64,000 nucleotides of DNA from a virus (IMGVR_UViG_3300021124_000001), one strand, 5' to 3'. Shown: positions 15,466-38,164, counted from the first letter of the stretch. The notes: generated by a model from the sequence alone, not told the origin. Program-made: numbers and translations.

Positions 15466-15999
15466 ATGTCTAATGTATTCAATACTGGTGTTAATCCAGT
15501 CCATTCTGGTATTTACGTGGTCGACCGCGGTGAGAAACTAGGTACACCGTTGCGTTGGTTCGATGCCGACACTGGTGAATGGTCTCGTTGTGAATATACA
15601 ATGGAAGATGTTATTAATGCCAAGGGTAAACCATCGGCACTTGGATTCTTGCCCTGGCGCGGTCCTGTCAAGGTAGCAAAACCAAAACCAGCCGCTGAGG
15701 TTGCATTGGTTAATGATGTACACGTTACAAATACCAATAACCCAGTCGATTTTCCCAAGACTAAAGCCAAACCAGTCAAGGTTGCTAAAGTAAAAGCACC
15801 AAAAGCTGTTAAGGTAGCAAAATCAACTGGTACTAAAGCCACACACCCTGACGGTACTATTATCTTCCGTGCAGACCGTAACAAATACATGGCATGGTTT
15901 GGCGGTAAGCCAGTTGCGGCGCGACCAACTATCGAATCGGCTAAGAATTTTCTAATTAAGAAAGGTATTACTGCCGAAAATATCAATGTAATTGCATAA
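15466..15999 (+). CDS. Protein with K/A/V/P-rich, histone-H1-like linker
   Basis: KAKPVKVAKVKAPKAVKVAK repeats between two small domains. Confidence 0.75.
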   Translation: MSNVFNTGVNPVHSGIYVVDRGEKLGTPLRWFDADTGEWSRCEYTMEDVINAKGKPSALGFLPWRGPVKVAKPKPAAEVALVNDVHVTNTNNPVDFPKTKAKPVKVAKVKAPKAVKVAKSTGTKATHPDGTIIFRADRNKYMAWFGGKPVAARPTIESAKNFLIKKGITAENINVIA

Positions 16000-16063: not shown

Positions 16064-16501
16064 ATGAAATATGTATATATTACGGCCGAGTTTAATAAAA
16101 AAATGTGTGAGATTTTTGAAGTTGATTATACGCCGACAGATACAACAAGATTTTTACTAAACAAAACCGAATCCATAATGCCTGTTAACATTGGTATTGA
16201 TATTGGTGTATTTGGTAAAGACCCATGGAACAAAGGTAAAAATACTGGACCATTATCAGAATCACACAGAAAATCATTATCATTGGCGGCAAAAAATTAT
16301 AAGAGAACACCAGAGCATCAAGAAAATAATAGAATCGCAAGGTCAGATTCTTGGTCAGTAACTAATCCAAAAGGTGAAACATTTACTATAAAAAGTATGA
16401 ATCATTTTTGTAAATGTAATCAATTAAATGCAGGACATATGACCTTGGTATCTCAAGGTAAAAGAAAACAACATAAAGGATGGACTTGTTCCAAAATATA
16501 A
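16064..16501 (+). CDS. Homing-endonuclease-like DNA-binding protein (NUMOD3 plus C-terminal HTH-like), no nuclease motif
   Basis: PWNKGK, SESHRK.LS, GKRKQHKGW; conserved hairpin leader at 15995-16063. Confidence 0.8.
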   Translation: MKYVYITAEFNKKMCEIFEVDYTPTDTTRFLLNKTESIMPVNIGIDIGVFGKDPWNKGKNTGPLSESHRKSLSLAAKNYKRTPEHQENNRIARSDSWSVTNPKGETFTIKSMNHFCKCNQLNAGHMTLVSQGKRKQHKGWTCSKI

Positions 16502-16698
16502 TGAACGAACGAATTAAAGAACTTGCTAAACAAGCAACTGTTCATGGCGATACTGAGCATCACCTGGACATACCGTTATGGTACTTGGAGCAGTTCGCCA
16601 AGTTGATTGTGAAAGAATGTACCAATATTGTGTTACACTATACTGATGTTGATGAAGGTGTAGCAGTGGCCAAGAAACATTTCGGAGTTGAAGAATGA
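16501..16698 (+). CDS. MNERI/KFAELIV/HFGVEE family member
   Basis: All three constant blocks present. Confidence 0.8.
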   Translation: MNERIKELAKQATVHGDTEHHLDIPLWYLEQFAKLIVKECTNIVLHYTDVDEGVAVAKKHFGVEE

Positions 16699-16988
16699 AA
16701 ACATCAGATATTAAAAAAGGTATGCGTGTCCGTCTTGCCAATGGTTGGTACGGTACTATGATGGATAATATGCGAGGTACTACCCGGCTTGTAGAGGTAG
16801 AAGGCCATTACACTGAAACCGGGTCGGTATATTCACATGATATTATTGTGGCTCAAACACCTACAGGCTGGGAAGCCGTTGTGCATACTGCAAAAGAATT
16901 GCAGTGCAAAGAAATGAATGAAGCGTTTTTTGGTGGTGGTGAAGAAGACCTACCATTTAAAAATGGTCTAGAATATATGTCAAACTAA
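16695..16988 (+). CDS. Hypothetical protein
   Basis: ATGA-coupled to the HFGVEE junction. Confidence 0.7.
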   Translation: MKTSDIKKGMRVRLANGWYGTMMDNMRGTTRLVEVEGHYTETGSVYSHDIIVAQTPTGWEAVVHTAKELQCKEMNEAFFGGGEEDLPFKNGLEYMSN

Positions 16989-17010
16989 GTATTGAATAAA
17001 GGAATATATT

Positions 17011-17553
17011 ATGCCAAACTGGTGCTCTAATGTTGTGGTTATCTCTCACGTTGAACCATCCAAACTGGATGTTATTCGTGATGCTGTTAAGGTAGCGGCC
17101 GAAGCCTCTACTGGTGAACATTTTTTCAATACTCTGGTGCCACGACCAGTAAATGAAGAAGAAAATTGGTATGAATGGAACGTGACCAATTGGGGTTGTA
17201 AATGGGATGTAGAGCCACAAATTACCGAAGATACTGGTGATTCTATTACTTTGACCTTTGATACCGCATGGGCACCACCAATTCAATTCTATAATGAGAT
17301 GGTCGAGCGTGATTATGAGGTTCGGGCATTCTATGATGAATCTGGTATGGCATTCGCTGGCATTTATGATAATGGCAATGACGATGATTATGAATATGGC
17401 AGTATGGACTCCAGTGAGATTGTAGATAATCTACCTCAAGAATTGGATGAAATGTTTGCTATCTCTGAGCAAAAGGCCGATTGGGAATCTGAAAACGAAG
17501 AACCTGATGTGGATGAAGCACAGGAATGGAACGATTTTGATCCAGAGTGTTGA
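17011..17553 (+). CDS. Api92/YubB-like ferredoxin-fold protein
   Basis: MPNWC.N, NWGCKWD, FDTAWAPP. Confidence 0.8.
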   Translation: MPNWCSNVVVISHVEPSKLDVIRDAVKVAAEASTGEHFFNTLVPRPVNEEENWYEWNVTNWGCKWDVEPQITEDTGDSITLTFDTAWAPPIQFYNEMVERDYEVRAFYDESGMAFAGIYDNGNDDDYEYGSMDSSEIVDNLPQELDEMFAISEQKADWESENEEPDVDEAQEWNDFDPEC

Positions 17554-17563
17554 AAGGAAATAA

Positions 17564-18142
17564 ATGTTTGTCTTTGATGTTGAAACACTTGGTAAGGAAT
17601 CTAGTGCAGTGATATTATCCATGGCGGCCGTATACTTTGACCCGAGGGAAAAACCATCACCAAAAGATATGCGAGACACCGCATTTTTTGCCAAATTCAA
17701 TGTCAATGACCAAATTGCAAGGCTTGGTCGCACCATGACCAGGTCATCCATATCATGGTGGGGTAAACAATGTGACATTGTAAAAAACAAATCATTTAAA
17801 CCAAGCGCCGATGATATTATCATTGATGATGGTGTAGAAGCCATGAGACAATGGTCAAAACAATTTCCAATGCACGACAAATGTTGGGTGTGGGCACGTG
17901 GCAACCTCGACCAATTGGTGCTTGATTCGATTGAAGAAAAACTAGGCATTGAACCTGTGTTTTTCTTTAATCGTTGGCGTGATGTGCGTACCGCATTGGA
18001 CCTATTGAATGGGTCTGTGACTGGTTATGTGGATGTGGATTATCCTGGTTTCAATCCTGCACATCATATACAAAAACATGACCCAATTGATGATTGCATT
18101 TTTGACGCCATGCAGTTACTATACGGAAAGAATGTAGAATGA
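17564..18142 (+). CDS. dexA: 3'-5' exonuclease (DEDDh, T4 DexA-like)
   Basis: FDVETLG, WARG..D, RDVRT, HDPIDDC..D. Confidence 0.85.
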   Translation: MFVFDVETLGKESSAVILSMAAVYFDPREKPSPKDMRDTAFFAKFNVNDQIARLGRTMTRSSISWWGKQCDIVKNKSFKPSADDIIIDDGVEAMRQWSKQFPMHDKCWVWARGNLDQLVLDSIEEKLGIEPVFFFNRWRDVRTALDLLNGSVTGYVDVDYPGFNPAHHIQKHDPIDDCIFDAMQLLYGKNVE

Positions 18143-18360
18143 ACGAACGAATTGAACAAATTATTGAACAGGCATATTGCGATTTACATAAACAGGATCC
18201 AAATAGATTTTTTGGTGAAAGAACTATTGCTAAAAAAGTAGCCGAGTTGATTGTCCAAGATTGTGCCAATTTTGTGCGTGAAACATATGACCACGAGGCG
18301 GCAGAATCTATCGCATGGACAATGGAGATTAATTATGGTTTACACGGAGATTATGCATGA
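18139..18360 (+). CDS. MNERI/KFAELIV family member (diverged)
   Basis: MNERIEQ, KVAELIVQDC. Confidence 0.75.
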   Translation: MNERIEQIIEQAYCDLHKQDPNRFFGERTIAKKVAELIVQDCANFVRETYDHEAAESIAWTMEINYGLHGDYA

Positions 18361-18519
18361 AAACAATTTTTGATAAAGAGTATGATTCGGAATCATTGTG
18401 TGATTTGAGCCGAGATGTCCATGAGGCATTCAACAATGATTTTAATCCAACAGTAGCCGACATACCAAAAGACGAGTATGGCTTCCATGAAGGCCGGTTC
18501 ATTGTCACAATAAAATGGG

Positions 18520-18581
18520 TGTTGTAAATTAACAACAAGCATACCAAAAGTCCTTGACGGACCGTCCAGATGTGCTATAAT
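18520..18581 (+). promoter_or_regulatory. Palindromic box plus sigma70-type promoter
   Basis: Box 18520-18537, TTGACG 18554-18559, TATAAT 18576-18581. Confidence 0.85.
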
Positions 18582-18609
18582 TGCCACTTATTCGATTGAT
18601 TAGGACACT

Positions 18610-18858
18610 ATGAGAACCAAGCAAATTGTTCAAGGGCTTAAAAATAGCCAGCGTATACGTGCCATTGTGAATGGTGTTGGATTTTATACAACCGTACAAG
18701 ATGCCCTGGCTGGTCCATTTACTACGCAAACCTCGGCAGTTAATGTTGTATTGCATGAGATTGGTTCAAATAAATTAACTGGTTTTGGTCGAACCGTTAA
18801 AGTTTATAATAGCTATATGGAAGCTGTTAATTTCAACATTCAAATTGATTTGGTTTAA
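18610..18858 (+). CDS. Hypothetical protein
   Basis: AGGA SD following the promoter. Confidence 0.7.
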   Translation: MRTKQIVQGLKNSQRIRAIVNGVGFYTTVQDALAGPFTTQTSAVNVVLHEIGSNKLTGFGRTVKVYNSYMEAVNFNIQIDLV

Positions 18859-18868
18859 GGAGATAATC

Positions 18869-19321
18869 ATGGGTTTAGATATGTACTTGTCGGCACGTAA
18901 ATATGTTTCTGATTTTGGTTTTAAACCAGAAGATACTAAACTAAATGCATCGATTAAAGAATCATTGGGTTTTGGTCCTAATGAATTTGGCCACATTTAT
19001 GTTGAATTAGAAGTGGCATATTGGCGTAAAGCAAACCAGATTCACGCATGGTTTGTGAATAATGTCCAAGATGGTGAAGACGATTGTGGAAATTATTATG
19101 TTTCCCGCGAACAAATTAGTGAATTGGTTAATCTGTGTTCGGAAGCCATTGATAATAAAGACTCCGAATTATTGGAACCAAAAAGTGGTTTCTTTTTTGG
19201 TTCGACCGATGTGGATGAATACTACTGGGACGAATTGAAACGCACCAAAATCGTCCTCAATCAAATTTTGAATGACAAACGACTGGAAGATTGTTCCTTC
19301 CAATATCATGCGTCCTGGTAA
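18869..19321 (+). CDS. Conserved phage protein (MGLDMYL...YWRKANQIH.WF)
   Basis: Recognisable motif family; AAGGAG SD. Confidence 0.8.
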   Translation: MGLDMYLSARKYVSDFGFKPEDTKLNASIKESLGFGPNEFGHIYVELEVAYWRKANQIHAWFVNNVQDGEDDCGNYYVSREQISELVNLCSEAIDNKDSELLEPKSGFFFGSTDVDEYYWDELKRTKIVLNQILNDKRLEDCSFQYHASW

Positions 19322-19416
19322 TGTTGCATAATAATGATTATAATATAAATAGGTGTGTATCGCGTCCTGGCAGGGACCATACACTCTAGCCATCGAAACA
19401 ATAATCAAGGACTATT

Positions 19417-19827
19417 ATGACCAGCACTAATATGTATATACCCCAGTCGGAATGGGATGCAATGTCCCAAGCATTATCTACCATATTCGATGTAGATTAT
19501 GTACCAAGTAACACCGAACCTTATATTGTAACCCCATTATATTCTAATAATTCTGGACATTTCAATCTAGGCATAAAAAGAACGGCCGAACAAAAAAAAG
19601 CTCAAAGTACTAGACAAATAGGAATGAGATATTCCCATTTACGCAATGAAAAAATTGGATTTGCAAATTCTAAAAATTGGTTAATCACTGATCCTATCGG
19701 TATCACATATAGAGTTTTTAATTTAAGGCAATTTTGTCGAGAAAAAAACTTAAATCAATCTAGTATGACTATGGTAGCCAAAGGCAAATTTAAACAACAC
19801 AAGGGTTGGACCTGTCAGAAAATTTGA
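19417..19827 (+). CDS. Homing-endonuclease-like DNA-binding protein, no nuclease motif
   Basis: NUMOD3-like repeats, NLRQFCRE..L, KGK.KQHKGW; leader at 19344-19416. Confidence 0.8.
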   Translation: MTSTNMYIPQSEWDAMSQALSTIFDVDYVPSNTEPYIVTPLYSNNSGHFNLGIKRTAEQKKAQSTRQIGMRYSHLRNEKIGFANSKNWLITDPIGITYRVFNLRQFCREKNLNQSSMTMVAKGKFKQHKGWTCQKI

Positions 19828-19828
19828 T

Positions 19829-19890
19829 TGTTGTTTTTAAGCAACACCGTCCCGGATTGTCCTTGACTTAGGTGCCGGCCGTGTTACAAT
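19829..19890 (+). promoter_or_regulatory. Palindromic box plus sigma70-type promoter
   Basis: Box 19829-19846, TTGACT 19863-19868, TACAAT 19885-19890. Confidence 0.85.
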
Positions 19891-19922
19891 GGACTCTTAC
19901 TTTGATTGATGAAGGAATTTAA

Positions 19923-20786
19923 ATGTCTGGTATTTTTATGGTTGACGGTAAGTATGCGGCTAATATCAACGGCAAGATTGTAAAACGTGCTAATCGCCGT
20001 GCATTGGAGCGTATGTTAAAAGTAACTGATGCCGTTGTTGCACCCACTGAGTCCAAATTCTCTATTAACCAGCGTTTTGGTTTCGTCCGTGATATGGTTC
20101 AAATGCTTGCAAAAGGCGACCAAGCGTCCGTGGTTGTATCGGGACCTGGTGGTCTCGGTAAGTCACACACCGTATCAGCCGCTTTGACCGATGCCGGCTT
20201 CACTGATCTGTCCGTGCTTGACGAATTGGCTGATGGTGCCGTTGTGCCTGATAAATCTTTCCGTGTTGTTAAAGGTTATTCTACACCAAAAGGTTTATAT
20301 CGTGTTTTGTTTGAGAATCGTAATTCGGTTGTTGTATTTGATGACTGTGATTCGGTGCTCAAAGATCCAGTATCTCTTAACCTATTGAAAGCGGCTCTAG
20401 ATTCATATTCTCGCCGTATTATCTCTTGGCGTGCCGATACTCGTGATGAAGAATTGCCTAATGTGTTTGAATTTAAAGGCCGTGTTGTCTTTATCTCTAA
20501 CCTGTCGTCATCTTCATTGGATCAAGCCATTATCTCACGTTCACTAGCCGTTGACTTGTCTATGACTGCCAAACAAAAGGTTGAACGTATGCGATTCCTG
20601 CTTGACCAAAAAGACTTTATGCCTGAGTATGACAAACAACACAAGGTCGATGCAATGGACCTTATTGCTGAGTTATGCGATAATGTGAAAGAGTTGTCTT
20701 TGCGTACACTGATTCAGGTAACAAAGATTCGTAAATCTGCCGGTGCAAACTGGAAAGATTTGGCTGAATATGCTATTGTTGGTTGA
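19923..20786 (+). CDS. AAA+ ATPase
   Basis: Walker A GPGGLGKS, Walker B VVFDDCD, FISN, AIISR. Confidence 0.88.
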   Translation: MSGIFMVDGKYAANINGKIVKRANRRALERMLKVTDAVVAPTESKFSINQRFGFVRDMVQMLAKGDQASVVVSGPGGLGKSHTVSAALTDAGFTDLSVLDELADGAVVPDKSFRVVKGYSTPKGLYRVLFENRNSVVVFDDCDSVLKDPVSLNLLKAALDSYSRRIISWRADTRDEELPNVFEFKGRVVFISNLSSSSLDQAIISRSLAVDLSMTAKQKVERMRFLLDQKDFMPEYDKQHKVDAMDLIAELCDNVKELSLRTLIQVTKIRKSAGANWKDLAEYAIVG

Positions 20787-21279
20787 TTTTTTAAAGGATT
20801 TATTATGTTTGAACAAACTGTAATGCAAAAAATTGGACATTTATTGAAAGAAGGCGAAACTGCTGAATTTCATAATGGTACATTGTTTCTCAATTCAGGC
20901 CGACCAACGGCCAATGATGTTTATATTGAATTGTGTAACATTTATCGTAAACGATTTATAAATTTCAATATTGTTACTGAAGGTGAATATGCGTTTGACT
21001 TTACTGCGTGAGACTACAAAGTGGGCCGATGGTTCGGCCACCAACTTCATATATGCCTTTGTGGATAAACCGGGTAAACGGTTAGGTAATGCTGTTGGTT
21101 ATATCAATCACCTATCTGATGAGTATAAGGAATTTAGTAAGCCAATGGTGATTGATATGAAGGATAGGACCTTTGTAGAGGTAGGTAATATCAAATTTGA
21201 ATTGGATACACCTATTCATTGAAAGCGGCACACCGCTATCTTATACACCATTTTTAAAATTGTCAAGGTAACTTTTGGT

Positions 21280-24200
21280 ATGAATGAAAAAATTCAAAAA
21301 CTAATGGGTAAGGCTCTAGATAGCGAAATGCGGCGAACCTGGGATACCATGACTTACGGAGACCTATTACAGTTTAGTGAAAAGTTCGCCGAGTTGATTG
21401 TTCGGGAATGTATGTATGTAGGTCGCTTATCTCAGATTAACAACGGCCTTGTTGATTCAGATATCAAAGACCATTTTTACGGAGTTGAAGATGAACGAGA
21501 CTGAAATTAAATTACTAATCGTCGGCACCATTATGCTTGGAGCAGGCATGATGTGGTTGGGCAATATCTTAGGGAGATTAGCATGAGCAAAAGAATGAGA
21601 GAACTTGCCGAACAGGCTGGATTTCAATACATTAAAGATGAAGGCATTGGCTGGGCTGGAAATTACAATGACAGTTTACCCAAGTTCGCCGAGTTGATTG
21701 TTCGGGAATGTATCGGATGTTGTGAACAAGTTATTAGTGATCCTGTTCCTAACTATATTGACACTTGGTTAAATGGTGGTTCGCAATGTATTGACGAAAT
21801 TAAACAACATTTCGGAGTTGAACGATGAAAGTCATTATTGAAAAACCGGATGGATCACCATATCTCACAGTAAGTGATGATAGACTAATGGTGTCTGTTC
21901 AAATGCACGATTGTGTGTGGATAGGTGAGCCAGTAAAGATTCACTTTGACCGCAGAACCATACCAGCACTGATTGATGCGTTAAGCAGATTGAATCGTGG
22001 CGAACTTGACACAACCATTCGCACACACCACTTTAACCAGGATATAGAATGAAAAAGATACCAATGTTAGAACGGTTCGCCGCACAAAGTCTTGTTGAAC
22101 ACGATGGTGAGTTGATATTCAGCAAAGAAAAGTTCGCCGAGTTGATTGTGCGTGATACATTAGACCAAGTTGCTGAATTTAGTCGTCTAACAAAGGCATA
22201 TCAAACACAAGGCATTGATCCCGAGATTGATGTTACCCGAGAAGTTTTGAAAAACTATGGGTTTACAAGATTTCCCAGGAGTTGAAGAATGAACGAACGA
22301 ATTCGAGAACTTGCCGAACAGTCCAGAGAAAAGAAATATGATTACGGTGCTAGAGAAGGTGAAAGTCATTACATTTATGTATTCAATGAAGAAAAGTTCG
22401 CCGAGTTGATTGTCAAGGAATGTCAAACTCGTGTAGAACAATATATCTGTGATTGCGGCGAGATTGGTTCATTGCCTGATGCTGTGATTATGAAACATTT
22501 CGGAGTTGAAGAATGATTGATTACTTCCAAGCACTTAAAGAAATGCACCAGGGCAATGTGGTCAAATATGTGGGCACAGTAAATGGTAATGTGATGAGCG
22601 ATAATGGTGCCAGTTTTTGTATGTGTCGTGGTTGTATCTTTCGATTCGACGATGGAGTAATCAAGTGGAACAAGTTGGGATATATGGTTTACGATCCAGA
22701 CTACCGTTATGAACTAACAGGTGAAACTGTGGATCCAAGGGCATGGAAACCAGAAGAGACAAAAAAGCAAAAGGATAAAGAATGAAAGACGATGATGTAA
22801 GAAAAGAGATTAGGCGTATAATGGAAAATCGTAAACACTATTCAAACACAAATAACCCTATTGATTTTCCAAAAATACAGGCAGGCGCTGATATCCATGC
22901 AGGTGATGGTGGTTATAGTATAGGCACACAAGAAAAGTATGAGGAGTTCGCTAAGGCTCGCAATAAGTCATTAGCCAACGCAAGAATTAGAGAACTTGCT
23001 GAACAGGCTGGATCAACCCATAAACAAAATCTCGGAGTATATCAATTTTATACAGATGAATTGGAAAAGTTCGCCGAGTTGATTGTTCAGGAATGTATCG
23101 AGGTCGTGGGAGACTGTTCCGATCAATTTGCTACACGGTCGCAGATTACTGAAGAAATTAAAGAACATTTCGGAGTTGAAGAATGAAATCATATAATGCA
23201 GTAAACGATTTACACATGGCCATGGCTCACGCTATTTACGAGGGCTTTCCTGAATATGAATACGAAAGCCGTGATTTCAACAACCCGGATAGAAATGCCC
23301 GAGTGGTTAAAAAAACACGCCACACCGAATACAATCTAACAGTCAAGGCCATGTTTCCTCAAGTCTGGAGTTCAACTGCGCTGGGCTTTGGTGGCATTGG
23401 TGGACAGGCTATTACTACCGCATATACCACGGTGGTAGAAAGCGACATTGACTCAAGTTGTTGTGTGTATTTTGGTGGACAATTTGCTTACCGTATTGAA
23501 CGACCTAATACTCAATTCTTTGAGGACCTGTCCAAACAACAAATGACCAAGGTGTCGGAAGCAAAGAAAAGATATGAACGAACGAATTGAAAAACTTGTC
23601 GAACAGGCTACTATTAAAACTTCTCATCGGTATATTACTTGGGGAAATACGGTTGCTACTCAGTCCGAAGAAGTCTTTGACAAGGAAAAGTTCGCCGAGT
23701 TGATTGTTCGGGAATGTGCTAAAATTTGTATTGAACAGAATGTATCCAACCTTGATTTAGATGTTATTCGTGAGTCTGGCAAATTTACTTTACAGGATCT
23801 TGCTACCAAATCGTGTGGTGAGAATTTGTCTAAACAGATTAGGAAACATTTCGGAGTTGAAGAATGAACTATTTTATTGTTGGGCTGGTCATTGGACTTA
23901 TTCCAGGTATGTGTGTAGCGGCTAATTATCATTACAAAAAATGGAGAAATTCTAAATGAACGAACTAATCAATAACTTAAGGCTTGATGCTGGAATAGCA
24001 CAACTCAAAGATGATCCACGATTAGTGGTAATTGATCGTGAAGGCAATGTGATTGATCCATTGATTGGGTTAGAAAAGTTCGCTGAGTTGCTTGTTCGAG
24101 AATGTGCTAATATTGCCACGATAAATCAATATCAATCCTACACTCCTGGTCATTATATTTTGAATCATTTCGGAGTTGAAGAATGAACGAAGACGAACGA

Positions 24201-24454
24201 GCAGGTTGGTGGGCTGTTGTATGCCTATTGATGGTTGGTGCGGCCGCCTACTTTACGATTTTTATGATCGTTTTCAGTTTGTTAAAACATTTTTTCGGAG
24301 TTGAATGATGGACGCATTTGATTTTATATGGAATGCAGACCAAGAATCCAAAATCAATCAACTTGAAAAACGTATTGAACAGTTGGAAAAACAGAATGAA
24401 GTCCTATGTGAATGTATTTTATATTTCAAACAAAAATTAGGAGTTGAAGAATGA
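21280..24454 (+). repeat. Core of the cassette-like ORF array: family members at 21280, 21583, 22049, 22289, 22782, 23574 and 23956, interleaved with unrelated ORFs at 21825, 22513, 23183, 24183 and 24305
   Basis: Recurrent DNA motifs CATTTCGGAGTTGAAGAATGA, AAGTTCGCCGAGTTGATTGT and ATGAACGAACGAATT. Confidence 0.9.
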
Positions 24455-24918
24455 AACCTAAATTGTATATGTTAATTGGTGTACCCGGTTCTGGTAAGAC
24501 CACATGGATTTCCAAACAAGAATGGGCCAAAGATTGTTGTATCGTATCAACCGACAAATATGTTGAAGAATATGCCATGATGCAGGGCAAAACATATTCT
24601 GAAGTATTCCAAGAGTTTATGCCCACGGCTGTAGAGTTGATGACTGATAATGTTAGACTCGCAAGGGAAGATAACCAAGATGTTATTTGGGATCAAACCT
24701 CAACCACAGTATCAACCAGACGGAAAAAGTTTGCATTGTTGCCTGACCATTATGCCATTGCAGTAGTATTCCGTACACCGAGCCGTGATGAATTGGATGT
24801 CCGACTATCTGGACGCCCAGGCAAACACATTCCTAAAGAAGTGGTTGATTCTATGATTGCAAAGTGGGAAGAACCAACCGAAGATGAGGGCTTCAGTGAA
24901 ATTTGGTACGTCAATTAA
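24451..24918 (+). CDS. P-loop kinase (AAA_33, polynucleotide-kinase-like)
   Basis: GVPGSGKTT, STD, WDQT, R..R. Confidence 0.85.
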   Translation: MKPKLYMLIGVPGSGKTTWISKQEWAKDCCIVSTDKYVEEYAMMQGKTYSEVFQEFMPTAVELMTDNVRLAREDNQDVIWDQTSTTVSTRRKKFALLPDHYAIAVVFRTPSRDELDVRLSGRPGKHIPKEVVDSMIAKWEEPTEDEGFSEIWYVN

Positions 24919-24922
24919 GCCC

Positions 24923-24951
24923 TTGACAAATGCCACAAAGTGGTATACAAT
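24923..24951 (+). promoter_or_regulatory. Sigma70-type promoter
   Basis: TTGACA-N17-TACAAT. Confidence 0.7.
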
Positions 24952-25158
24952 GGTCACACAAACTAAGGAGTTCCAATGGGTAAGATGAAAGAAGTTGTTG
25001 ATAGAATCTTGGACTTGGTTCAAAATGATTATGATGATGAGGCCATTGCATTGATTGTTGGTGTGGACATCACAATTGTTGAACAAGTCAAACGCAATTC
25101 TGGTCTTTATGAAGAACCAAAAGACATAATTGAAAAATACTAATTTATGGAAATCGCA

Positions 25159-26298
25159 ATGAACAAAAATCAAAAAGCATTTATCTCTGCATCTGAGCGT
25201 AAACATGGCCGTGGTGCCACATTGACTCGTGACCAGATCAACGACATTGTTGAAGAAACTGGTTTGTCATTCCCATTCTGGTTGACCACAAAGTCTGAAT
25301 ATCGTGCTGGCCGTGGGCAGTATGAAGTGCCTACATTGGGCAATACACCTGTCGAGGTAGAATCTCCTGAGTTGGCTACTGTTGACCTTGCACAAGTTAT
25401 GGTTCTGCGCCAGCCTAAACTGAAAGATGAATCTGATACCTCTATCCCTGAAAAGTACCCTGATTATGTCCCTTTTGGATTTTTTAAAGATTTACGGAAC
25501 ATTGTTAAATCCTCTCTATTTTATCCTGTGTTTATTACTGGTCTTTCTGGTAATGGTAAAACCCTCATGGTTGAACAAGTTTGTGCCGAACTCCAAAGAG
25601 AGTGCATCCGTGTCAATATTAGTATCGAAACTGACGAAAGCGATTTGTTGGGTGGTCCTACTCTTGTCAATGGCAACGTTGTTAACCGTGATGGTCCTGT
25701 CATTATCGCTATGAAGCGTGGTGCCATTCTATTGATTGACGAAGTTGACCGTGGTTCTAATAAACTAATGTGCTTGCAAGGTATTCTTGAGGGTAAGCCA
25801 TACTACAACAAGAAATCTGGTGAGTTGGTGCATCCTGCTCCTGGCTTCAACATCATTGCTACTGCTAACACTAAAGGCCGTGGTTCTGATGAGGGCAAGT
25901 ATCTATCTCAGATTCTTGATGATGCATTCTTGGAACGTTTCCCTATTACTGTAGAACAGGAATATCCTGACAGCAGAACAGAGACTAAGATTCTTACACC
26001 ATTGATTAAGGACGAAGACTTTGTTAAGTGCCTTGTTATGTGGGCTGAAGTGGTCCGTAAGTCATTCGATGAAGATGCAACCGATGAAGTTATCTCTACT
26101 CGCCGTTTGGTGCATATTGCAAAAGCATATGAAATCTTTGGTGAACGTATGAAGGCTATCAAATTGTGTGTGAATCGTTTCGATGAAGAAACCAAGACTG
26201 CATTCCTTGACCTGTATACAAAAGTTGATGCAAAGATCAATGCACCTGAAGCGCCTGCTGTTCCAACGCCAAAAGTTGATGAAGAAATTCCATTTTAA
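25159..26298 (+). CDS. MoxR-family AAA ATPase (phage CobS-like)
   Basis: GLSGNGKT, LLIDEVD, TANTKGRG, LDDAFLERF, ISTRRL. Confidence 0.92.
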   Translation: MNKNQKAFISASERKHGRGATLTRDQINDIVEETGLSFPFWLTTKSEYRAGRGQYEVPTLGNTPVEVESPELATVDLAQVMVLRQPKLKDESDTSIPEKYPDYVPFGFFKDLRNIVKSSLFYPVFITGLSGNGKTLMVEQVCAELQRECIRVNISIETDESDLLGGPTLVNGNVVNRDGPVIIAMKRGAILLIDEVDRGSNKLMCLQGILEGKPYYNKKSGELVHPAPGFNIIATANTKGRGSDEGKYLSQILDDAFLERFPITVEQEYPDSRTETKILTPLIKDEDFVKCLVMWAEVVRKSFDEDATDEVISTRRLVHIAKAYEIFGERMKAIKLCVNRFDEETKTAFLDLYTKVDAKINAPEAPAVPTPKVDEEIPF

Positions 26299-26308
26299 GG
26301 AGTGAGTT

Positions 26309-26656
26309 ATGATTAAGAAAATTCGTACAGGCAAACAAAATCGTCATGAAAAAATTACTGTTGCTTTGTTATCGGGTAAGCCAGTGGCTCCTGATGATAT
26401 TAAAGCGTTGTTTAAGGGCACTGACCAAGAAGCCGTGTTGTACCGACTGAGTACAAACATCTATAATATTCGGCGTGATGGTGGTATCATACGTGTTCAA
26501 AAAAATGGGCGAGCGGTATCATCCTATCAATTGATGAACCCACAAGATTTCAATGCCGATGGCCGTTTTGTTGGTCGTAAATCAGCCGAATCAGTAAATA
26601 AAACTGTTGAAGTTAATCCAACAGAAATCATTGTAGATGAATTGGAAACAGTATGA
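26309..26656 (+). CDS. Putative winged-helix DNA-binding protein
   Basis: YRLSTNIYNIRRDGG.I......YQL pattern. Confidence 0.55.
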   Translation: MIKKIRTGKQNRHEKITVALLSGKPVAPDDIKALFKGTDQEAVLYRLSTNIYNIRRDGGIIRVQKNGRAVSSYQLMNPQDFNADGRFVGRKSAESVNKTVEVNPTEIIVDELETV

Positions 26657-27030
26657 ACGAAAAAGGTATAGTGATTCCTTATGAAGTGGCTGATGGTATT
26701 ATTTTGGCTGGTTTGATTGACCAACGTGCATACCTCACTGAAGAATTGCGAGCAAATGAGGAAGAACTCTCGTGGTTGCATCCTGAAGATATTGTCCGTA
26801 ACAAGAAACTTATCAAGGCATTGACAAAGATTATCCATTACTATGGAGGTGAATGATGAGTTCACTTGATGCTTTGAGAATTGTTTTTGGTCTTTCTTGT
26901 TTTATTGGTGCAACTGTCGGTTTGTATAATCAAGAATGGATGATGTCTTGTGCTTACTCTTTGTTCTATATTGCATTTGAGTTTGGTAATAAGATAGAAG
27001 AATAAATATTAAATTTGATGGTGAACAACA

Positions 27031-27252
27031 ATGAAAGAACGTATTAAAGAAATTGCGTTGCAGGCTGGTGGTAGCCATTACCCTGATGTTGGTGGCGATC
27101 TATTACAGAAGTTTGCAGACCTATTGATTGATGAATGTATTAGAGCAATACAAGAAACACCTAATCATCATTGCTACACTAGTTTTGATATTGCACAATC
27201 TGATGGTACTAAGGCTGAATGTATTGAACACATTAAAAAAATTCTAATGTAA
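27031..27252 (+). CDS. Diverged MKERI/KFADLLI family member
   Basis: MKERIKEIALQAG...KFADLLIDEC. Confidence 0.75.
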   Translation: MKERIKEIALQAGGSHYPDVGGDLLQKFADLLIDECIRAIQETPNHHCYTSFDIAQSDGTKAECIEHIKKILM

Positions 27253-27537
27253 GGAAATTAAATGGATCGATTAACAGAACACGACTTACGTAATGTTAGA
27301 TTTTTGATGTCATTGGGTAGTATTGGTCTGATGAGATTCATGCAACAAGCCAGCGAAGATGATATTCGTTATGCGAATGAGATTATGAGAATGTATAAAA
27401 GGGAAATGGAAGAGGCAGGCAGTAGGTTCACAGAAGATTCGTTCCTATCCCACAATCACAATGAGATTGAAGATTTTAGTGATGCAAAGTTGGTTCTGAA
27501 AAAGTTTATGTTAAACAAGTGATACGGAGATTATATT

Positions 27538-27855
27538 ATGACTGCAAGTGAAATTAAATTAGAATCTGATAAAGTAACGGCGGAGTTGTTTGCTGATGAA
27601 GTGGCCCGCCAATGGCTTAAGAGTTGCCTGAACACCTCTATTTGCACTATCACCTTCACCAAGAAAAATGGTGATGAGCGTGTTATGAAGTGCACACTGG
27701 ACGAACAACATTTCCCACCAATCCAAAAAGAAGCCGCAGAGGTCGGTGAAGTTCGTCAGAAATCCAAGGACGCCCTGGCCGTTTTTGACATCGAGGCTCA
27801 AGCATGGCGTTCATTCCGTTGGGATTCCATCAAACGATTTGAAATGGCGCTATGA
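27538..27855 (+). CDS. WYL_2/Sm-like SH3-fold protein
   Basis: FTKKNG.ER.M.CTL, VFD.E...WRSFR. Confidence 0.8.
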   Translation: MTASEIKLESDKVTAELFADEVARQWLKSCLNTSICTITFTKKNGDERVMKCTLDEQHFPPIQKEAAEVGEVRQKSKDALAVFDIEAQAWRSFRWDSIKRFEMAL

Positions 27856-28002
27856 AAGATACCCTTGACATTGCACTGGTACTGTGTTACAATCTAGCCA
27901 TACTTGCCGGCACTGCATACCTTGTGGAATTCCACAATTGGTCAGGCTGGTGGTTCCTTATGACACTCTGCTTCATGGTAAGCATTAAAACGGACGATTA
28001 AA

Positions 28003-28836
28003 ATGAAATTTGCACTATGCTCAGACCTCCATTTGGAGTTTGAAACACTTGAATTGAACAACACCGAAGGTGCTGATGTATTGGTGCTGTCCGGTGATAT
28101 TTGCCTTGCTAAAGATTTGTGGCATAAAAATACTGAGCGCAGTGAAATCTGGATGAAATTCTTTACTCATTGCTCTGAACAATTCAAAGATGTGATTTAC
28201 ATTATGGGTAACCATGAGCATTATCATGGTGACTTTGCTAAATCATATAATCAATTAAAAGAAGCATTGGCTGAACTGCCTAACATTCATGTGATGGAAA
28301 AAGAATTCATTCACATTGGTGATGTGACCTTTATCGCAGGTACTCTTTGGACTGATATGAACAAAGAAGACCCTAGTACCTTGTTTGGTATCAAGGGTTA
28401 CATGAATGATTATCGTATCATTGAAGACTCTGCACGTCCTGTTCACTTCCGTGATTCTGATGGTAACTTCCACACTCGCACATCTAAGTTTAGTCCTGAA
28501 CAGTCTGTTGAAGAACACAAGGCCATGTTGAAAGTGATTGATGAAGTCACTAAAGATAATGTCACTGGAAAGTTTGTGGTTGTTGGACATCATGCACCAT
28601 CTAAAATGTCCACTAAGCCAAAATATCAAGGTGATGTAATGGTCAATGGTGCATATAGTTCCGACTTGTCAGACTTTATCTTGGATCGTCCTATGATTAA
28701 AGTATGGACTCATGGCCATACACATGATACGTTCGATTATATGATTGGTTCCACTCGTATTGTTTGCCGGCCGAGAGGATATGCAAACTATGAAGATGTT
28801 GCCGATACTTTTAAATTGCAGTATATTGAGGTTTGA
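28003..28836 (+). CDS. Calcineurin-like metallophosphoesterase
   Basis: SDLH, GD, GNHE, HH, HGHTH. Confidence 0.92.
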   Translation: MKFALCSDLHLEFETLELNNTEGADVLVLSGDICLAKDLWHKNTERSEIWMKFFTHCSEQFKDVIYIMGNHEHYHGDFAKSYNQLKEALAELPNIHVMEKEFIHIGDVTFIAGTLWTDMNKEDPSTLFGIKGYMNDYRIIEDSARPVHFRDSDGNFHTRTSKFSPEQSVEEHKAMLKVIDEVTKDNVTGKFVVVGHHAPSKMSTKPKYQGDVMVNGAYSSDLSDFILDRPMIKVWTHGHTHDTFDYMIGSTRIVCRPRGYANYEDVADTFKLQYIEV

Positions 28837-28837
28837 T

Positions 28838-29970
28838 ATGGCCATCGAAAAAGCCAAACCATCTCGTGAAGAAATCAAGGAAAATGCTCAACTTCAAATG
28901 GAAGAAGACATTGCCAATTGGAAAAAACTATACAATGAACATATCGATAAAGATATGTTGGATGAAGATGGTTATCCGACAGATGATGCATTGATTATTA
29001 TTGAGAATTGGTATTGGAATGATCCAAAAGGTTGGTTTGAGTTTATCAAATCACTTTGGCATCTGAGTTCATGGGGTTGGGGTGAGGGTGAAGAACCACA
29101 CGACTGGCGGAAAGATGAAATGTGTTATCGCTATCACATCTCCACTGCCGGTTGGTCTGGCAATGAAGCAATCATACATGCAATGCAAAAGAATGATTGG
29201 ATGTGGCATCTTAATTGGGTACAATCACGCCGTGGTGGCCACTATATTTTTGAATTGAAAGAAATTACATGAAAGTCTACATCTCAAACTATCGTAATCA
29301 TTGGTTAAGCCCATACACTATTCTAAAGAATGTGTGTTTTTGGGAAAAAGATCATGACGTATTCTATGACCTTGAAGAAAAAGGTAGCAAGTATACCAAA
29401 TGGGTAAACTTTCTTAATCCAATTTGCCAAGCATGGCAGAAGTTCTTAGACATCGTGCACCCAAGAATCAATTATGTGAAGATTGACAACTACGACACAT
29501 GGAACATGGACGGCACATTGACACCAATCATTCTACCGATGTTGAAGCAATTGAAGGCAACTAAACATGGTTCTGCTCCTGTTGATATGGAAGATGTTCC
29601 AGAATCAATGAGAACGATTGACCATGAAGAATATGAAGATCAAAAATCTTTTGACTTCTACCATGATCCAGATTTACAAAAGGTTCAATGTGATATTCAC
29701 GACCGTTGGGATTGGGTCTTGGATGAAATGATTTTTGCGTTCGAACACCTTGCTGATGATTCATGGCAAGATGCTTACCGTAGTGGTGTTATGGATTGGG
29801 GAAGCAAAGCGTGTGAATGGAACGAAAATGGCAAAGCAACCATGTTCCAAATGGTTGAAGGTCCAAACCATACATATAAATGTGACTATGATGGAATGAA
29901 AGTAGTTGAAGACCGTATTAATAATGGTTTGAGACTTTTTGGCCGGTATTTTAGAGGATTGTGGGACTAA
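28838..29970 (+). CDS. Two hypothetical proteins (28838-29272, 29269-29970)
   Basis: Coupled ORFs; STAGWSGNE and GLRLFG.YF..LWD phage motifs. Confidence 0.75.
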
Positions 29971-29971
29971 T

Positions 29972-30387
29972 ATGAACGAACGAATTAAAGAACTTGCTAT
30001 AGAGGCTGGGATGATTGTAGGTGAGGCAAATGGATTTGACATGACACGGTTGATGCCCAGAGAAGTAAAGTTCGCCGAGTTGATTGTGAAGGAATGTGTG
30101 GGCATTTACAACAAACTTGATAATGGTAATCAACATCTTGGCACTGACGATTACTTGGAAGCATTACAAAAACATTTCGGAGTAAAGTAATGAATGCCGA
30201 ACGAGTTACAAACAAGAGATTAAACCGTAATGGATGGTACTGGGCAGTAAAGTTTGCTGACCCAGCGGATGCTGATGACCTAATCGCAACTTTGCCATTG
30301 GGCACAAAAGGATACTACCGGGCCAAGGGGCATACTGCTCGACCACATTGGGTTTTAGTTAAAAATACTTTCGGAGTTGAAGAATGA
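29972..30387 (+). CDS. Family member (29972-30190) plus an unrelated ORF ending FGVEE (30190-30387)
   Basis: Constant DNA blocks present. Confidence 0.8.
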
Positions 30388-30614
30388 AATCTCTCTTTAA
30401 ACAAACAAAGGTTGTGTATGATGCACACATGCAAGAATATGTTGTATTCTATAAGAATTGGTTGTTTTGGAAACATGAATGGACATATAAAGTATCTGAG
30501 TATCTTCCTGATGAAAGAGCAAAAGAACTTGCTGTAACCAGAGCAAAGAATATGTTAGATACCGTTGAAGTGTATCGTAGTCCCAAACCAGTATATTATT
30601 GTTAAGGATAAAAA

Positions 30615-31151: not shown

Positions 31152-32925
31152 ATGAGTAAAGAAGAAGATCGTATTAAGCATTCTAAACGCCTGCATCAAG
31201 AAGAAACAGCAATCAAACATAACATGAAGGTTGCTAAAGCACATGGTGTTCCTGTTGACCAATATGAATCACATCGTTATGCTAAAGTCAATGCAGTTAA
31301 CTGTGGTGATCCAAAATGTGTATTGTGTATGAATCCTCGTAAGTCAATGGGTGAGAAAACAATTCAAGAACAACGATTTGAACAATCAGGATTATATGAT
31401 GAGTGAGGTTGACAAACCCGATTGTGGTTGTTATAATTGTATGCACAAGAAGAAGGACAAGAATGGTTGGCCACTAACCATGTCTATCTTCATTGTGTGT
31501 CCTAATTGTGGCAATAAACGTTGCCCTAAGGCAACAGACCACACATTAGAATGTACAAATAGTAATGAACCAGGACAAAAAGGAAGTCGTTATGGGTGAA
31601 AATAAGGTGACTGAAATTGAGAAAAAACTTTGAATATTACAAACGTGATTACTGGTCATTCGGTATTGCTGTACGTAATCCTTATGAACGTGAGCACCAT
31701 GAAAAGCCTTATTGCACATTTAATATTTGTTTGTTCAAGCATTCATGGTGGTGGAAAATTCCTGAGTTGTTCAAACCAAAAGAAAAGTGGATTGATACAA
31801 CCAATATGTCATGGAACAAAGACAAAGAAGGTCCATGTGGATTCATGGAAGAGATTCGTAAAGAATACGGATTCACATTTACACCTGATGGACTACACAC
31901 CTATTATGGTATTCAACCAGGTAATTGGACTCGTGATGATCCAGAAAATTCAGACCATTCAAAATTATTCAGTTATCCATGGCGCCTAGAGATTGTACGT
32001 CACGACCTATTGTATCCAGATGGTGATTTACTTTGGCGAAATAGTTATCCTAAAAAGAAAGATGATAAACACCTTCTCTGGTATGAGGTATTTGAGTGGC
32101 CTAGTGTTAAAGGGGAACAGTCCGCAGAAGACTTGTTTGCTGAGTTTGTTGAAATAGACCACTGGACTAAAGATGGTGTAAACCAAAAAGCAAAGATTAG
32201 ATTGACTGGTGAAGAACGTGAATGGCGTCCAAAATGGACACGTTGGTTGCCAATATTCAAACACGTTCGAAGGGTCGTTGATTGTGATTCTGACACCGAA
32301 CTTGGACCTCGTGCGGGTTCATGGAAAGGTGGCATGATGGGTTGGTCATGTGATTGGAAAGAGGATGAATCTATGAAAGATGCATTCAGACGTTGGTATA
32401 AAAATTGGGATGGGAATTGAAATGAGTTTATTATCTTATGCTGAGAGTGAATTGGACCTTATTGGTCTAACTGAAGAAGATGAATACAATAGAATGATGC
32501 GTAAGCATATTCTGCATATGATTAAAGAGTTTTCTGATGAAGGACATTCTGGTTTCTCTGCTCAATATGCAATTGATATTCTAAGCAAACTGTTGTCATT
32601 CAAACCATTGACACCGTTGACTGGCGAAGATGATGAATGGTGTGATGTTAGTGAATATAGTGGAACAACCACTTATCAAAATAAAAGATTGTCTTCCGTA
32701 TTCAAAGAAGGTAAAGACGGTGAAGCATACAACATTGACGGCAAGGTCTTTTGGGAATGGTATAAAGATGAAGATGGCAATGCTGTAAAAACATATTACA
32801 CTAGCCGAGACTCAAGAGTTACTGTAACTTTCCCTTACACCGTACCTGATAAACCAATCTATGAGTATCGTCAATCGGATGCGGAACCAAAATCACCACC
32901 ACAAAACGAACAGGGTTTTCTATAA
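31152..32925 (+). CDS. Hypothetical ORFs (31152-31406 and 31396-31599 Cys-rich, 31617-32420, 32422-32925)
   Basis: Packed ORFs; CPNCGNKRC zinc motif; GHSGFSA...PLTG motif. Confidence 0.7.
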
Positions 32926-37528: not shown

Positions 37529-38164
37529 ATGTTTTTGGTCAACAAATACACTGAAAGATATAATTCTATTGTGCATAAAGCCAAAAATAGAAAGTTGGTC
37601 GAGGGTGTTTACTATGAGAAACACCACATTCTACCAAAATCTATGGGTGGCAAAAACAACAAGTGCAATTTAGTGAATTTAACACCAAAAGAACATTATG
37701 TCGTGCATCACCTTTTAACAAAAATGTGTGAAGGTGATAATTCTAGAAAAATGAATTATGCTTTTTGGAAATTAAACATACGTTATAAAGATGAAAAAAG
37801 AACTAATATAAATTTTTCAACATTTGAAAAAATACGTGAAAAACAAAAAGAAAATATGTCAAAAACCATGACTGGTAGATTTGTCTCAGAAAAAGCCAGA
37901 GAATCTGTTAGAAATTCCAATAGACTAAGGGTTGGAGATAAACACCCCTTATTTGGTAAAAAAAGACCAAACCATGTTATTGAAGCCAGCAGAAAAGCAA
38001 ACTTGGGTAATAAGTATTGTTTAGGTAGAAAAGTTAGTGAAGAAACTAGAAAAAAAATGTCCGAATCCCAAAAAAATGTAGAAAAATTTGATTGTGGTAT
38101 ATGTGGTCGGAAAATTTCAGGAAAAGGTAATTTCACCCAACATACTAGGTCACATAAAATATAA
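37529..38164 (+). mobile_element. HNH homing endonuclease with NUMOD3 repeats
   Basis: EKHHILPKS.GG.N...NLV.LT.KEH...H; SEETRKKMSES. Confidence 0.88.

Follow-up and report, generated by a model that had tools for sequence, protein, structure and literature searches.

Phage genomes are mosaics, and the formation of the joints between their parts has been argued in terms either of random illegitimate events followed by selection or of conserved linkers. In the lambdoid phages, short conserved boundary or linker sequences at module edges have been put forward as places where phages exchange DNA by homology; they are rare, only weakly conserved and a matter of debate. The exchange of phage modules is the subject of the modular theory (Botstein 1980, as cited in Trojet et al. 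2011, PMC3157838). Among the T-even phages, the gp38/gp37 adhesins carry conserved glycine-rich motifs between hypervariable segments (Trojet et al. 2011, PMC3157838; also Tetart et al. 1996, 1998, as cited there), and the hyperplastic regions of T4-type phages contain PeSL (promoter-early stem-loop) cassettes (Arbiol et al. 2010, PMC2839356; Comeau et al. 2014, PMC4122927).

The DNA analysed here (the window) is a 64,000-nucleotide stretch of a virus (IMGVR_UViG_3300021124_000001) that includes an accessory-gene stretch of a T4-like myovirus. Small genes in this region are built from three constant blocks, designated N, M and C, that alternate with two variable segments, V1 (20–45 aa) and V2 (18–43 aa), and the comparisons described below indicate block-bounded shuffling of mini-genes in this T4-like lake phage genome. 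The encoded proteins are acidic, ~65–100 aa in length and found in phages only. They form at least 7,990 clusters when grouped at 90% identity and at least 7,974 at 50%; of 249 viral loci that were fetched, 235 carry the family, with 656 members in total and as many as 12 copies per array. The exact M-block and C-block words are each present in over 119 IMG/VR contigs (4–355 kb), and the family is also found in 300–355 kb jumbo contigs with no gp32 match above the family cut-off. A search of 50,697 GenBank phage records found no member, and comparison with Pfam, PHROG and PDB sequences gave no match and no convincing fold match. In the structure model of one member (member 6 below), the order of elements is helix, beta-hairpin, long helix, helix; the N, M and C blocks are predicted to form the first helix, the long helix and the C-terminal helix, respectively, and V1 the beta-hairpin. 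The original prediction of a helical scaffold was thus roughly right.

Family genes sit among early and replication genes, outside the tail-fibre locus. Since the region lies downstream of sigma-70-like promoters in intergenic gaps (the best promoter-like sites are at 18554, 19863 and 24923), it is probably expressed early. That the proteins act in anti-defence or host takeover is a guess. An Acb3-like gene adjoins the region and is the sole hint from context in that direction.

In several respects the family resembles systems described previously. Like gp38, its members are small proteins of T4-type phages in which constant motifs alternate with variable segments, with chimeras whose crossovers lie in or near the conserved motifs. 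Unlike gp38, a single-copy virion gene involved in receptor binding, the family is multi-copy and non-structural, the silent sites of its blocks are fixed across unrelated phage lineages, and its terminal blocks form a gene joint, so that whole foreign genes are exchanged too. In common with the PeSL cassettes it has small non-essential genes of T4-type accessory regions bordered by short, conserved stretches of DNA, recombination between these motifs that leads to insertions, deletions and replacements among relatives, and a second role for the motif in expression. A PeSL, however, is non-coding and combines a sigma-70 promoter with a terminator hairpin, whereas the blocks are coding, contain neither element, appear to act on translation rather than transcription and shuffle sub-gene segments as well. 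The resemblance to the lambdoid linkers lies in short conserved sequences at module boundaries as proposed exchange sites; the blocks differ in being abundant, conserved at silent sites and associated with hundreds of block-bounded matches. As in an integron, small promoterless genes form an array in one orientation with a repeated site at their bounds and expression from upstream, but the array has neither an IntI integrase (~50 window ORFs) nor a structured attC site, and its exchange points fall within coding sequence, so that sub-gene segments are swapped. A diversity-generating retroelement was also considered and rejected: the variable segments differ in length and cannot be aligned, where equal-length repeats differing at adenines would be expected, the same segment recurs with different partners, and there is no reverse transcriptase among the ORFs tested.

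A family profile finds exactly 11 members in the window, where about 11 paralogues had been proposed. Every block copy is on the + strand, between 16.5 and 30.4 kb, and a search of the other 50 kb of the window found no further copies. The N block (ATGAACGAACGAATT) occurs exactly at 16501, 18139, 22289, 23574 and 29972, against a chance expectation of 0.22, and with two mismatches at 23956 and 27031. The M block (AAGTTCGCCGAGTTGATTGT; chance expectation 0) is exact at 21382, 21682, 22130, 22394, 23067, 23688 and 30068, with variants at 16591, 18235 and 24076. The 21-nt C block is exact at 16678, 22496, 23166, 23847 and 24166, with variants at 21808, 24434 and 30367; its 15-nt core (GGAGTTGAAGAATGA) is found exactly in eight places, 22278 among them, and with two mismatches at 21814. 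All of the exact positions given in the original prediction were correct, and next to no copies would be expected by chance. The features of the region are as follows.

16501..16698, + strand: member 1, 65 aa from the N-block ATG; N and C exact, M variant (16591)
16695..16988, + strand: non-family ORF, 97 aa; starts at the C-block ATG of member 1
18139..18360, + strand: member 2, divergent; N exact, M variant (18235), no C block
21280..21504, + strand: member 3; M exact (21382); a one-base deletion in the C block extends it by 4 codons into the N-like start of the next mini-ORF
start at 21491: membrane mini-ORF, 31 aa, with an N-like start
21583..21828, + strand: member 4; M exact (21682), C variant (21808)
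22049..22285, + strand: member 5; M exact (22130); its stop is the TGA inside the C core, in another frame
22278..22292, + strand: out-of-frame C core, giving the GGAG, 7-nt spacer and ATG of member 6
22289..22516, + strand: member 6; N, M and C all exact; the protein used for the model
22513..22785, + strand: non-family ORF, cassette candidate, 90 aa; starts at a C-block ATG; no match in Pfam or PHROG
22782..23186, + strand: member 7, 134 aa; M and C exact; an unrelated 68-aa N-terminal extension is joined where the N block lacks its ATG
23183..23590, + strand: non-family ORF, 135 aa; starts at a C-block ATG
23574..23867, + strand: member 8; N, M and C all exact
23956..24186, + strand: member 9; N and M variants, C exact
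24183..24308, + strand: non-family membrane mini-ORF, 41 aa; starts with N-block nucleotides 1–10 and closes in a C-block variant
24305..24454, + strand: non-family ORF, 49 aa, coiled-coil-like; ends in an exact C core
24451..24918, + strand: AAA_33 kinase-like gene; starts at a C-block ATG
27031..27252, + strand: member 10, divergent; two-mismatch N, altered M, no C block
29972..30190, + strand: member 11; N and M exact, first part only of the C block
30190..30387, + strand: non-family ORF, 65 aa; ends in an exact C core; no match in Pfam or PHROG
30384..30605, + strand: non-family ORF; starts at the last C-block ATG

The dense array reaches its limit at the AAA_33 kinase-like gene.

In the C block, GGAG is followed after a 7-nt spacer by an ATG overlapping the stop codon. 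Two of its three reading frames contain stop codons, so that most upstream genes end beside the downstream restart site. In 344 of 398 distinct copies (~86%), the block ATG opens a reading frame of 35 aa or more, and the same is true of 64 of the 74 in which the block does not encode the tail, which bears out the proposal that this block supplies Shine–Dalgarno sequence, stop and next start in one piece, out-of-frame copies included. One such copy is that at 22278, where, as had been noted, the core is retained although the upstream ORF reads it in another frame; the same arrangement is seen in 30 further block copies elsewhere. The ORFs at 24183–24308, 24305–24454 and 30190–30387 do indeed end in the C block whilst lying outside the family, and the exact 15-mer core is confined to the array region. 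From these features we infer that the C block serves as a portable gene joint across which translation would be coupled.

Conservation of the blocks extends to their silent sites. Using a peptide-pattern search, which is unbiased for codon choice, we collected 201 unique members from 76 other viral contigs with a GC content of 34–53%. Six block codons in this sample far exceed their background frequencies: CGA (88% vs 13%), CTT (76% vs 16%), GCC (79% vs 21%), GAG (85% vs 26%), TTG (83% vs 24%) and GGA (93% vs 20%), whilst the variable segments of the same genes follow background codon usage. Given the amino acids and phage codon usage, the M-block codon set has a probability of 5e-4 per copy. 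The third position of the valine codon that ends the M block is saturated (pairwise identity 0.32), so the block is not merely young. Block variants show no within-genome concordance, and therefore intragenomic gene conversion, which we considered as the source of block uniformity, is ruled out. The constant blocks are thus shown to be preserved at the DNA level in many phage contigs that are otherwise unrelated, beyond what protein constraint and codon bias account for, and the nucleic-acid-level selection proposed originally is upheld. None of the functions tested accounts for the fixation of the particular synonymous sites of the M block.

V1 and V2 assort independently: V1 clusters of size n have ~n different V2 partners, and V2 clusters behave likewise. 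There are 54 pairs of V segments with a DNA identity of 90% or more; in ~80–90% of these, identity is below 50% for the other segment and for each flank. Linkage to V1 or V2 falls off within the ~30-nt M block. The breakpoints of relatives had been predicted to lie in the constant blocks, and when this check was run, 56% of the ends of non-syntenic matches lay within 20 nt of a block, compared with 7% of random positions. Among 20 matches between the window and other contigs, 19 end in a block on at least one side, and for 14 each end lies ~12 nt or less from a block; a comparison of the window's own 11 paralogues found no V segment in common. Both kinds of variable segment contribute to these matches. 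The V2 of member 1 (16586–16699) is 89% identical to contig L174 and that of member 9 (24073–24191) is common to L212, both matching from block to block, and the V2 of member 4 (21682–21829) has matches in six other contigs, each running from M block to C block. The N block and V1 of member 6 (22277–22423) give a block-bounded match of 88% identity to L241; the V1 of member 7 (22977–23104) is common to L054, L030 and L248, with matches that stop in the M block, and that of member 8 is identical over 99 nt (100%) to L035, with V2 and both flanks unrelated.

Capture of unrelated small genes between junctions, as envisaged in the original prediction, is seen in ~10 independent non-family ORFs, 87–97% identical to one another and moved as units into unrelated contexts, with a C block as their 5′ limit and a C-like joint or N block as their 3′ limit. 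Matches of the ORF at 22513..22785 to L084, L107 and L023 start 0–8 nt from the C block at 22502. The match of the mini-ORF at 24183..24308 to L137 (24171–24305) runs exactly from C block to C block, and this mini-ORF appears to be a whole-gene cassette between two C blocks. As judged from these alignments, the blocks are short-homology crossover points, and the block-bounded units that have moved separately between genomes and contexts are V1, V2 and entire small foreign ORFs. The sequences compared are all short-read metagenome assemblies, and some of the 100%-identical mosaics could be chimeric assembly joins.

The exact tracts common to random members have medians of 9–14 nt and reach 20 nt or more in 7–29% of pairs. 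Classical homologous recombination prefers longer identity than this. No integrase or recombinase family was found by Pfam comparison among the ~50 ORFs of the window (64 kb of a ~169-kb genome), nor among ten of the commonest neighbour families that were tested. The blocks are direct repeats on one strand and take part in no inverted repeats; none carries a terminator-like hairpin. No site-specific enzyme is consistently near the blocks and no nuclease constantly accompanies the arrays. The term integron-like therefore holds as an analogy only.

We consider it probable that short-homology crossovers at coding blocks conserved as DNA shuffle V1, V2 and whole small ORFs between phages. General recombination and replication functions would carry out the exchanges, by annealing or template switching at 10–25 nt of identity during mixed infection, and a dedicated recombinase would be unnecessary. 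The C and N blocks would be kept at the nucleotide level because they signal translation initiation, those copies true to the consensus would remain in the common exchange pool, and the outcome would be a mix-and-match repertoire of putative small binding proteins. A rather unlikely alternative is that the blocks are functional nucleic-acid signals first, with crossovers following passively from their identity; the C and N blocks would then act as a ribosome-site and start module, and the M block as a binding site for a phage regulator, nuclease or small RNA. The constraint is indeed site-specific, with a saturated synonymous site beside fixed ones, out-of-frame C blocks are retained and still start genes, and the variants look like draws from one global consensus, independent of genome GC or sister copies. 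However, no role can be named for the M block, there is no conserved pairing between blocks in 118 mRNAs (highest mean pair probability 0.08), and promoter-like sites are not enriched (54 vs 46.5 ± 6.8), none coinciding with a block. The other genes of this phage have different SD spacers and contexts, so this particular spacer is not generally optimal. For the C block, moreover, this alternative overlaps with short-homology shuffling and does not exclude it.

It is improbable, in our view, that a dedicated endonuclease, either a stand-alone GIY-YIG domain or an HNH/NUMOD-type homing enzyme, cuts at or near the blocks and is followed by repair from a co-infecting genome, as in intronless homing. 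The commonest array neighbour is a GIY-YIG protein of ~110 aa (54 of 249 loci) with the fold of the I-TevI catalytic domain (1mk0; E 2e-4, TM 0.63/0.71), one third of whose copies have a C-block-like tail, and the window contains several NUMOD3-type homing-endonuclease-like genes, as well as two truncated ones inside the region. The GIY-YIG gene, though, is absent from the window and from three of the five large family-bearing contigs, and where found is often kilobases from the array; a comparison with the other 249 loci gave no homologue of the truncated endonuclease-like ORFs. In any case, T4-like accessory regions commonly contain such genes. Hardly credible is a reading of the genes as ordinary paralogues, with block identity due to protein constraint combined with codon bias or with recent duplication, and with mosaics that are assembly chimeras. 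The most conserved residues do fall in the blocks, and the comparison data are all metagenome assemblies, but block codons are minority codons, and codon usage is normal in the variable parts of these genes. The mosaic partners come from different samples, many being 85–97% rather than 100% identical and therefore diverged since exchange, the window's own paralogues share no V segment, and the blocks are shorter than the large k-mers of current assemblers. This reading is already largely refuted.

Beyond short-homology shuffling itself, we suggest only tentatively that silent-site identity is a shared exchange interface, through which T4-like and jumbo lake phages pool half-gene and whole-gene cassettes in a combinatorial library of putative small binding proteins. 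Exchange through such an interface might be aided by a block-specific activity, for which the stand-alone GIY-YIG nuclease is the only candidate seen. If true, this would be a natural recombination-based diversity generator working at the sub-gene level, with a frame-tolerant translation joint built in.

For the argument over phage mosaicism, the family offers an unusually clean case for the linker view: hundreds of block-bounded exchanges, exchanged units down to 70–140 bp, and linkers that are fixed at silent sites across unrelated phages and would also handle the expression of adjacent arrivals. The C-block joint could serve as a compact part for translationally coupled gene arrays. The ~8,000 clusters of abundant, uncharacterised lake-phage proteins would represent a diversifying repertoire; such a pattern is expected of proteins engaged in an arms race with the host, and makes testing them against defence systems worthwhile.

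Every exact copy of the three constant DNA blocks (N, M and C) was found, on scanning the window, at the coordinate originally predicted for it. The N block is present in five exact and two near copies, the M block in seven exact copies and three variants, and the 21-nt C block in five exact copies and three variants with no more than three mismatches; the 15-nt centre of the C block (the C core) occurs in eight exact copies and in one copy with two mismatches, at 21814. Dinucleotide-preserving shuffles give a chance expectation of 0–0.2 copies. All copies lie on the + strand and are confined to 16.5–30.4 kb of the 64-kb window. About 11 paralogous genes had been proposed to carry the blocks, and a profile built from the paralogues identifies exactly 11 family members. 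The ORFs at 24183-24308, 24305-24454 and 30190-30387, described as unrelated, are indeed non-members with a C block at their ends. The M block together with the following Glu-Cys codons (21382-21413) has a core in common with the C block (22496-22516), the two being two insertions apart, and an old internal duplication could lie behind this common core.

The variable segments (V1, between the N and M blocks, and V2, between the M and C blocks) were clustered separately, giving 248 and 239 clusters, respectively, from 345 unique members; the comparison sequences were metagenome assemblies throughout. The number of different V2 clusters with which a V1 cluster pairs is about equal to the number of members in that V1 cluster, and the same is true of V2 clusters with respect to V1. 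There are 54 pairs of V segments at least 90% identical as DNA. The other segment is less than 50% identical in 22 of the 26 V1 pairs and 22 of the 28 V2 pairs, and each flank is unrelated in about 80–90% of these pairs. The V1 of member 8 (23574-23867), for example, matches another viral contig (L035) with 100% identity over 99 nt. Identity linked to V1 fades across the M block, from about offset 0 to offset 20, and identity linked to V2 fades the opposite way.

Location of breakpoints within the constant blocks of relatives had been set beforehand as a test of the original prediction, and this is where they fall. Matches between non-syntenic contig pairs have a median length of 75 bp and, across all loci, 56% of match ends are no more than 20 nt from a block, versus 7% for random positions. 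Between 16 and 31 kb of the window there are 20 matches of at least 70 nt; 19 of them terminate in a block on at least one side, and in 14 neither end is farther than about 12 nt from a block. No V segment is common to two of the window's own paralogues, and the V1 and V2 partners of these paralogues sit in different contigs. Block-bounded shuffling of V segments and small genes is regarded as a real and well-supported feature.

The C block was proposed to supply a Shine–Dalgarno (SD) sequence, a stop codon and the next ATG in one piece. Its make-up bears this out: besides stops in two of the three frames, it contains GGAG and, after a 7-nt spacer, an ATG overlapping the stop. Of 398 distinct C-core contexts, 344 have an ORF of 35 aa or more that begins with the block ATG. 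Family genes end in the block in 285 of these contexts and unrelated ORFs in 39; the remaining 74 copies code no in-frame tail. Even so, a downstream ORF begins at 64 of these 74, and at 30 of them an ORF from upstream, read in another frame, stops at the internal TGA. The out-of-frame C core noted earlier at 22278 is as described: the frame of member 5 (22049-22285) stops at the TGA within the block, whose ATG serves as the start of member 6 (22289-22516). The SD contexts of the remaining genes of the window phage differ from this one, and the exact 15-mer therefore does not represent a general optimum. We infer translational coupling across the C block.

Whole small genes also move between joints as cassettes. 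About ten independent unrelated small genes, copies of which are 87–97% identical to each other, are found in unrelated contexts, with homology beginning at the block ATG and ending at a C-like joint or an N block. The 41-aa membrane ORF at 24183-24308 is one such cassette, common to the window and contig L137 from C block to C block. Interspersed among the family genes are several ORFs of 31–50 aa, each with a single hydrophobic helix; three of them start at block ATGs:

21491-21586, + strand, one-hydrophobic-helix ORF
23864-23959, + strand, one-hydrophobic-helix ORF
24183-24308, + strand, one-hydrophobic-helix ORF
26853-27005, + strand, one-hydrophobic-helix ORF
27852-28001, + strand, one-hydrophobic-helix ORF

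The peptide TNTNNP-V/I-DFPK is seen both in the ORF at 15466-15999 (+ strand) and in the foreign N-terminal extension of member 7 (22782-23186, + strand), which hints that it is another small shuffled piece.

The blocks were also claimed to be conserved at silent sites. Given the codon usage of the window phage, the M-block codon set has a probability of 5e-4 per copy, and in the N block Arg is encoded by CGA, a codon with a share of 7% among the Arg codons of this phage. The exact 20-nt M block and 18-nt C block are each present in more than 119 IMG/VR contigs ranging in size from 4 to 355 kb, and the N block, which was not used to select loci, was found in 119 of 173 loci chosen by M and C words. 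Ascertainment bias was avoided by fetching 80 loci (GC 34–53%) with a degenerate peptide pattern, and codons were analysed in the 201 unique members that these contain. Block codons lie far above background, as claimed.

Codon use in the blocks and in the background, 201 unique members
CGA (Arg): block 88%, background 13%
CTT (Leu): block 76%, background 16%
AAG (Lys): block 88%, background 39%
GCC (Ala): block 79%, background 21%
GAG (Glu): block 85%, background 26%
TTG (Leu): block 83%, background 24%
GGA (Gly): block 93%, background 20%
GTT (Val): block 91%, background 36%

Gene-level codon bias is excluded as an explanation because the V segments of the same genes use codons at background levels (CGA 17%, GCC 17% and GGA 26%, for example). 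Nor are the blocks simply young: the Val codon ending the M block has a saturated third base (pairwise identity 0.32), and at the Phe position of the C block the two codons are used 54/46, yet the sites flanking both are fixed, and the constraint is therefore site-specific. Within-genome concerted evolution would make copies from one locus alike, but block variants show no concordance among the copies of a locus and likeness within loci is no greater than between them, which rules it out. Amelioration to host-genome GC was likewise rejected, with a weak trend at just one site and almost no relation to locus GC overall. The block copies behave as draws from one global pool.

The family is large. 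Of the 8,000 clusters at 90% identity scored in a word-indexed search, 7,990 were significant, which sets a minimum for the family; an exhaustive profile search identified 7,974 family clusters at 50% identity. The proteins are acidic (median pI 4.9) and 63–100 aa long, with V1 and V2 accounting for 20–45 and 18–43 aa. The AlphaFold2 model of member 6 (pLDDT 84), in which all three blocks are exact, comprises a helix at residues 3–11 (N block), a β-hairpin at 13–32 (V1), a long helix at 34–56 (M block and the start of V2) and a helix at 63–71 (C block). There is no match to the family in Pfam or PHROG, a profile search of PDB sequences returned nothing, and neither Foldseek against the PDB (best E 0.2) nor a wide fold search with VIA-align (best Z 4.9) gave a convincing solved fold. 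Matches in BFVD and the ESM Atlas are exclusively to unnamed proteins, all of them from uncultured tailed phages. Against GenBank phage records, megablast, tblastn (with two family members as queries) and blastn of the joint produced nothing or chance-level short matches, and a literature search that included the family peptide motifs found no published description. In bacterial genome collections the exact M block occurs in only 14 short contigs, from freshwater-lake MAGs, most likely mis-binned phage DNA.

The window phage itself is a T4-like myovirus encoding the small chain of ribonucleotide reductase, T4-type RNase H, gp59, gp32, baseplate proteins, PhoH and a CobS with ~51% identity to its counterparts in pelagiphage HTVC008M and cyanomyoviruses; no close relative was found among 50,697 GenBank phage records. 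The best predicted sigma-70-like promoters fall in intergenic gaps at 18554, 19863 and 24923, but overall promoter-like sites are not enriched. A gene for an Acb3-like CBASS inhibitor (PF25187, E 7e-25) lies a short way downstream of the arrays, at 31806-32420 (+ strand), so that one or more recognisable anti-defence genes are present in the neighbourhood. The gene at 27538-27855 (+ strand) encodes a WYL_2 (Sm-like SH3) domain protein, whose family is a frequent array neighbour in 22 other loci.

What drives the exchange was sought in the blocks and in their neighbours. The blocks contain no hairpin, and base-pair probabilities for 118 mRNAs reveal no consistent RNA pairing between them. Elsewhere, the commonest array neighbours are a 5'-3' exonuclease, an AAA ATPase, DNA ligase, phosphatases and a ~110-aa protein that folds as a GIY-YIG nuclease (model pLDDT 88; best match the I-TevI catalytic domain, E 2e-4). 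This stand-alone domain, which has no Pfam or PDB sequence match, is the commonest neighbour of all, being present in 54 loci (L228:227-562 and 53 others) and often close to the arrays, and a C-block-like tail is found at the end of 17 of 51 copies. The gene is, however, missing from the window and from three of the five large family-carrying contigs. The window also has four paralogous free-standing homing-endonuclease-like genes, two of them with NUMOD3 motifs:

37529-38164, + strand, homing-endonuclease-like gene
54376-54978, + strand, homing-endonuclease-like gene
57266-57715, + strand, homing-endonuclease-like gene
62737-63354, + strand, homing-endonuclease-like gene

The 22 nt upstream of 54376 and of 57266 differ by one base. 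Two further ORFs (16064-16501 and 19417-19827, + strand) match an HNH-endonuclease PHROG within positions ~190-250, its DNA-binding part, and have a C-terminal peptide in common; the first adjoins the N block of member 1. Both resemble homing enzymes that have been truncated, and they were rejected as drivers of exchange, comprising the DNA-binding part alone and having no homologue in the other 249 loci. With no hairpin and no constant nuclease beside the arrays, exchange is attributed to general recombination or template switching, which would act at short identity; random pairs of members have exact tracts in common with medians of 9–14 nt, reaching at least 20 nt in 7–29% of pairs.

The original prediction likened the array to an integron. 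That likeness fails, since there is no integrase among about 50 window ORFs tested and no attC, and the array is not a diversity-generating retroelement either. One parallel is PeSL shuffling in the hyperplastic regions of T4-type phages (PMC2839356), which the family matches in motif-mediated shuffling; the blocks, however, lack promoter and terminator, and the family is no PeSL member. Neither does it belong to the gp38 system, having no homology to gp38. The window feature is a variant of motif-mediated modular shuffling, new in three respects: the linkers are themselves coding, with their silent sites fixed in unrelated phage lineages, and their range includes jumbo contigs of 300–355 kb with no gp32 match above the family cut-off; half-genes of 70–140 bp are among the exchanged units; and one linker doubles as a frame-tolerant translation joint.
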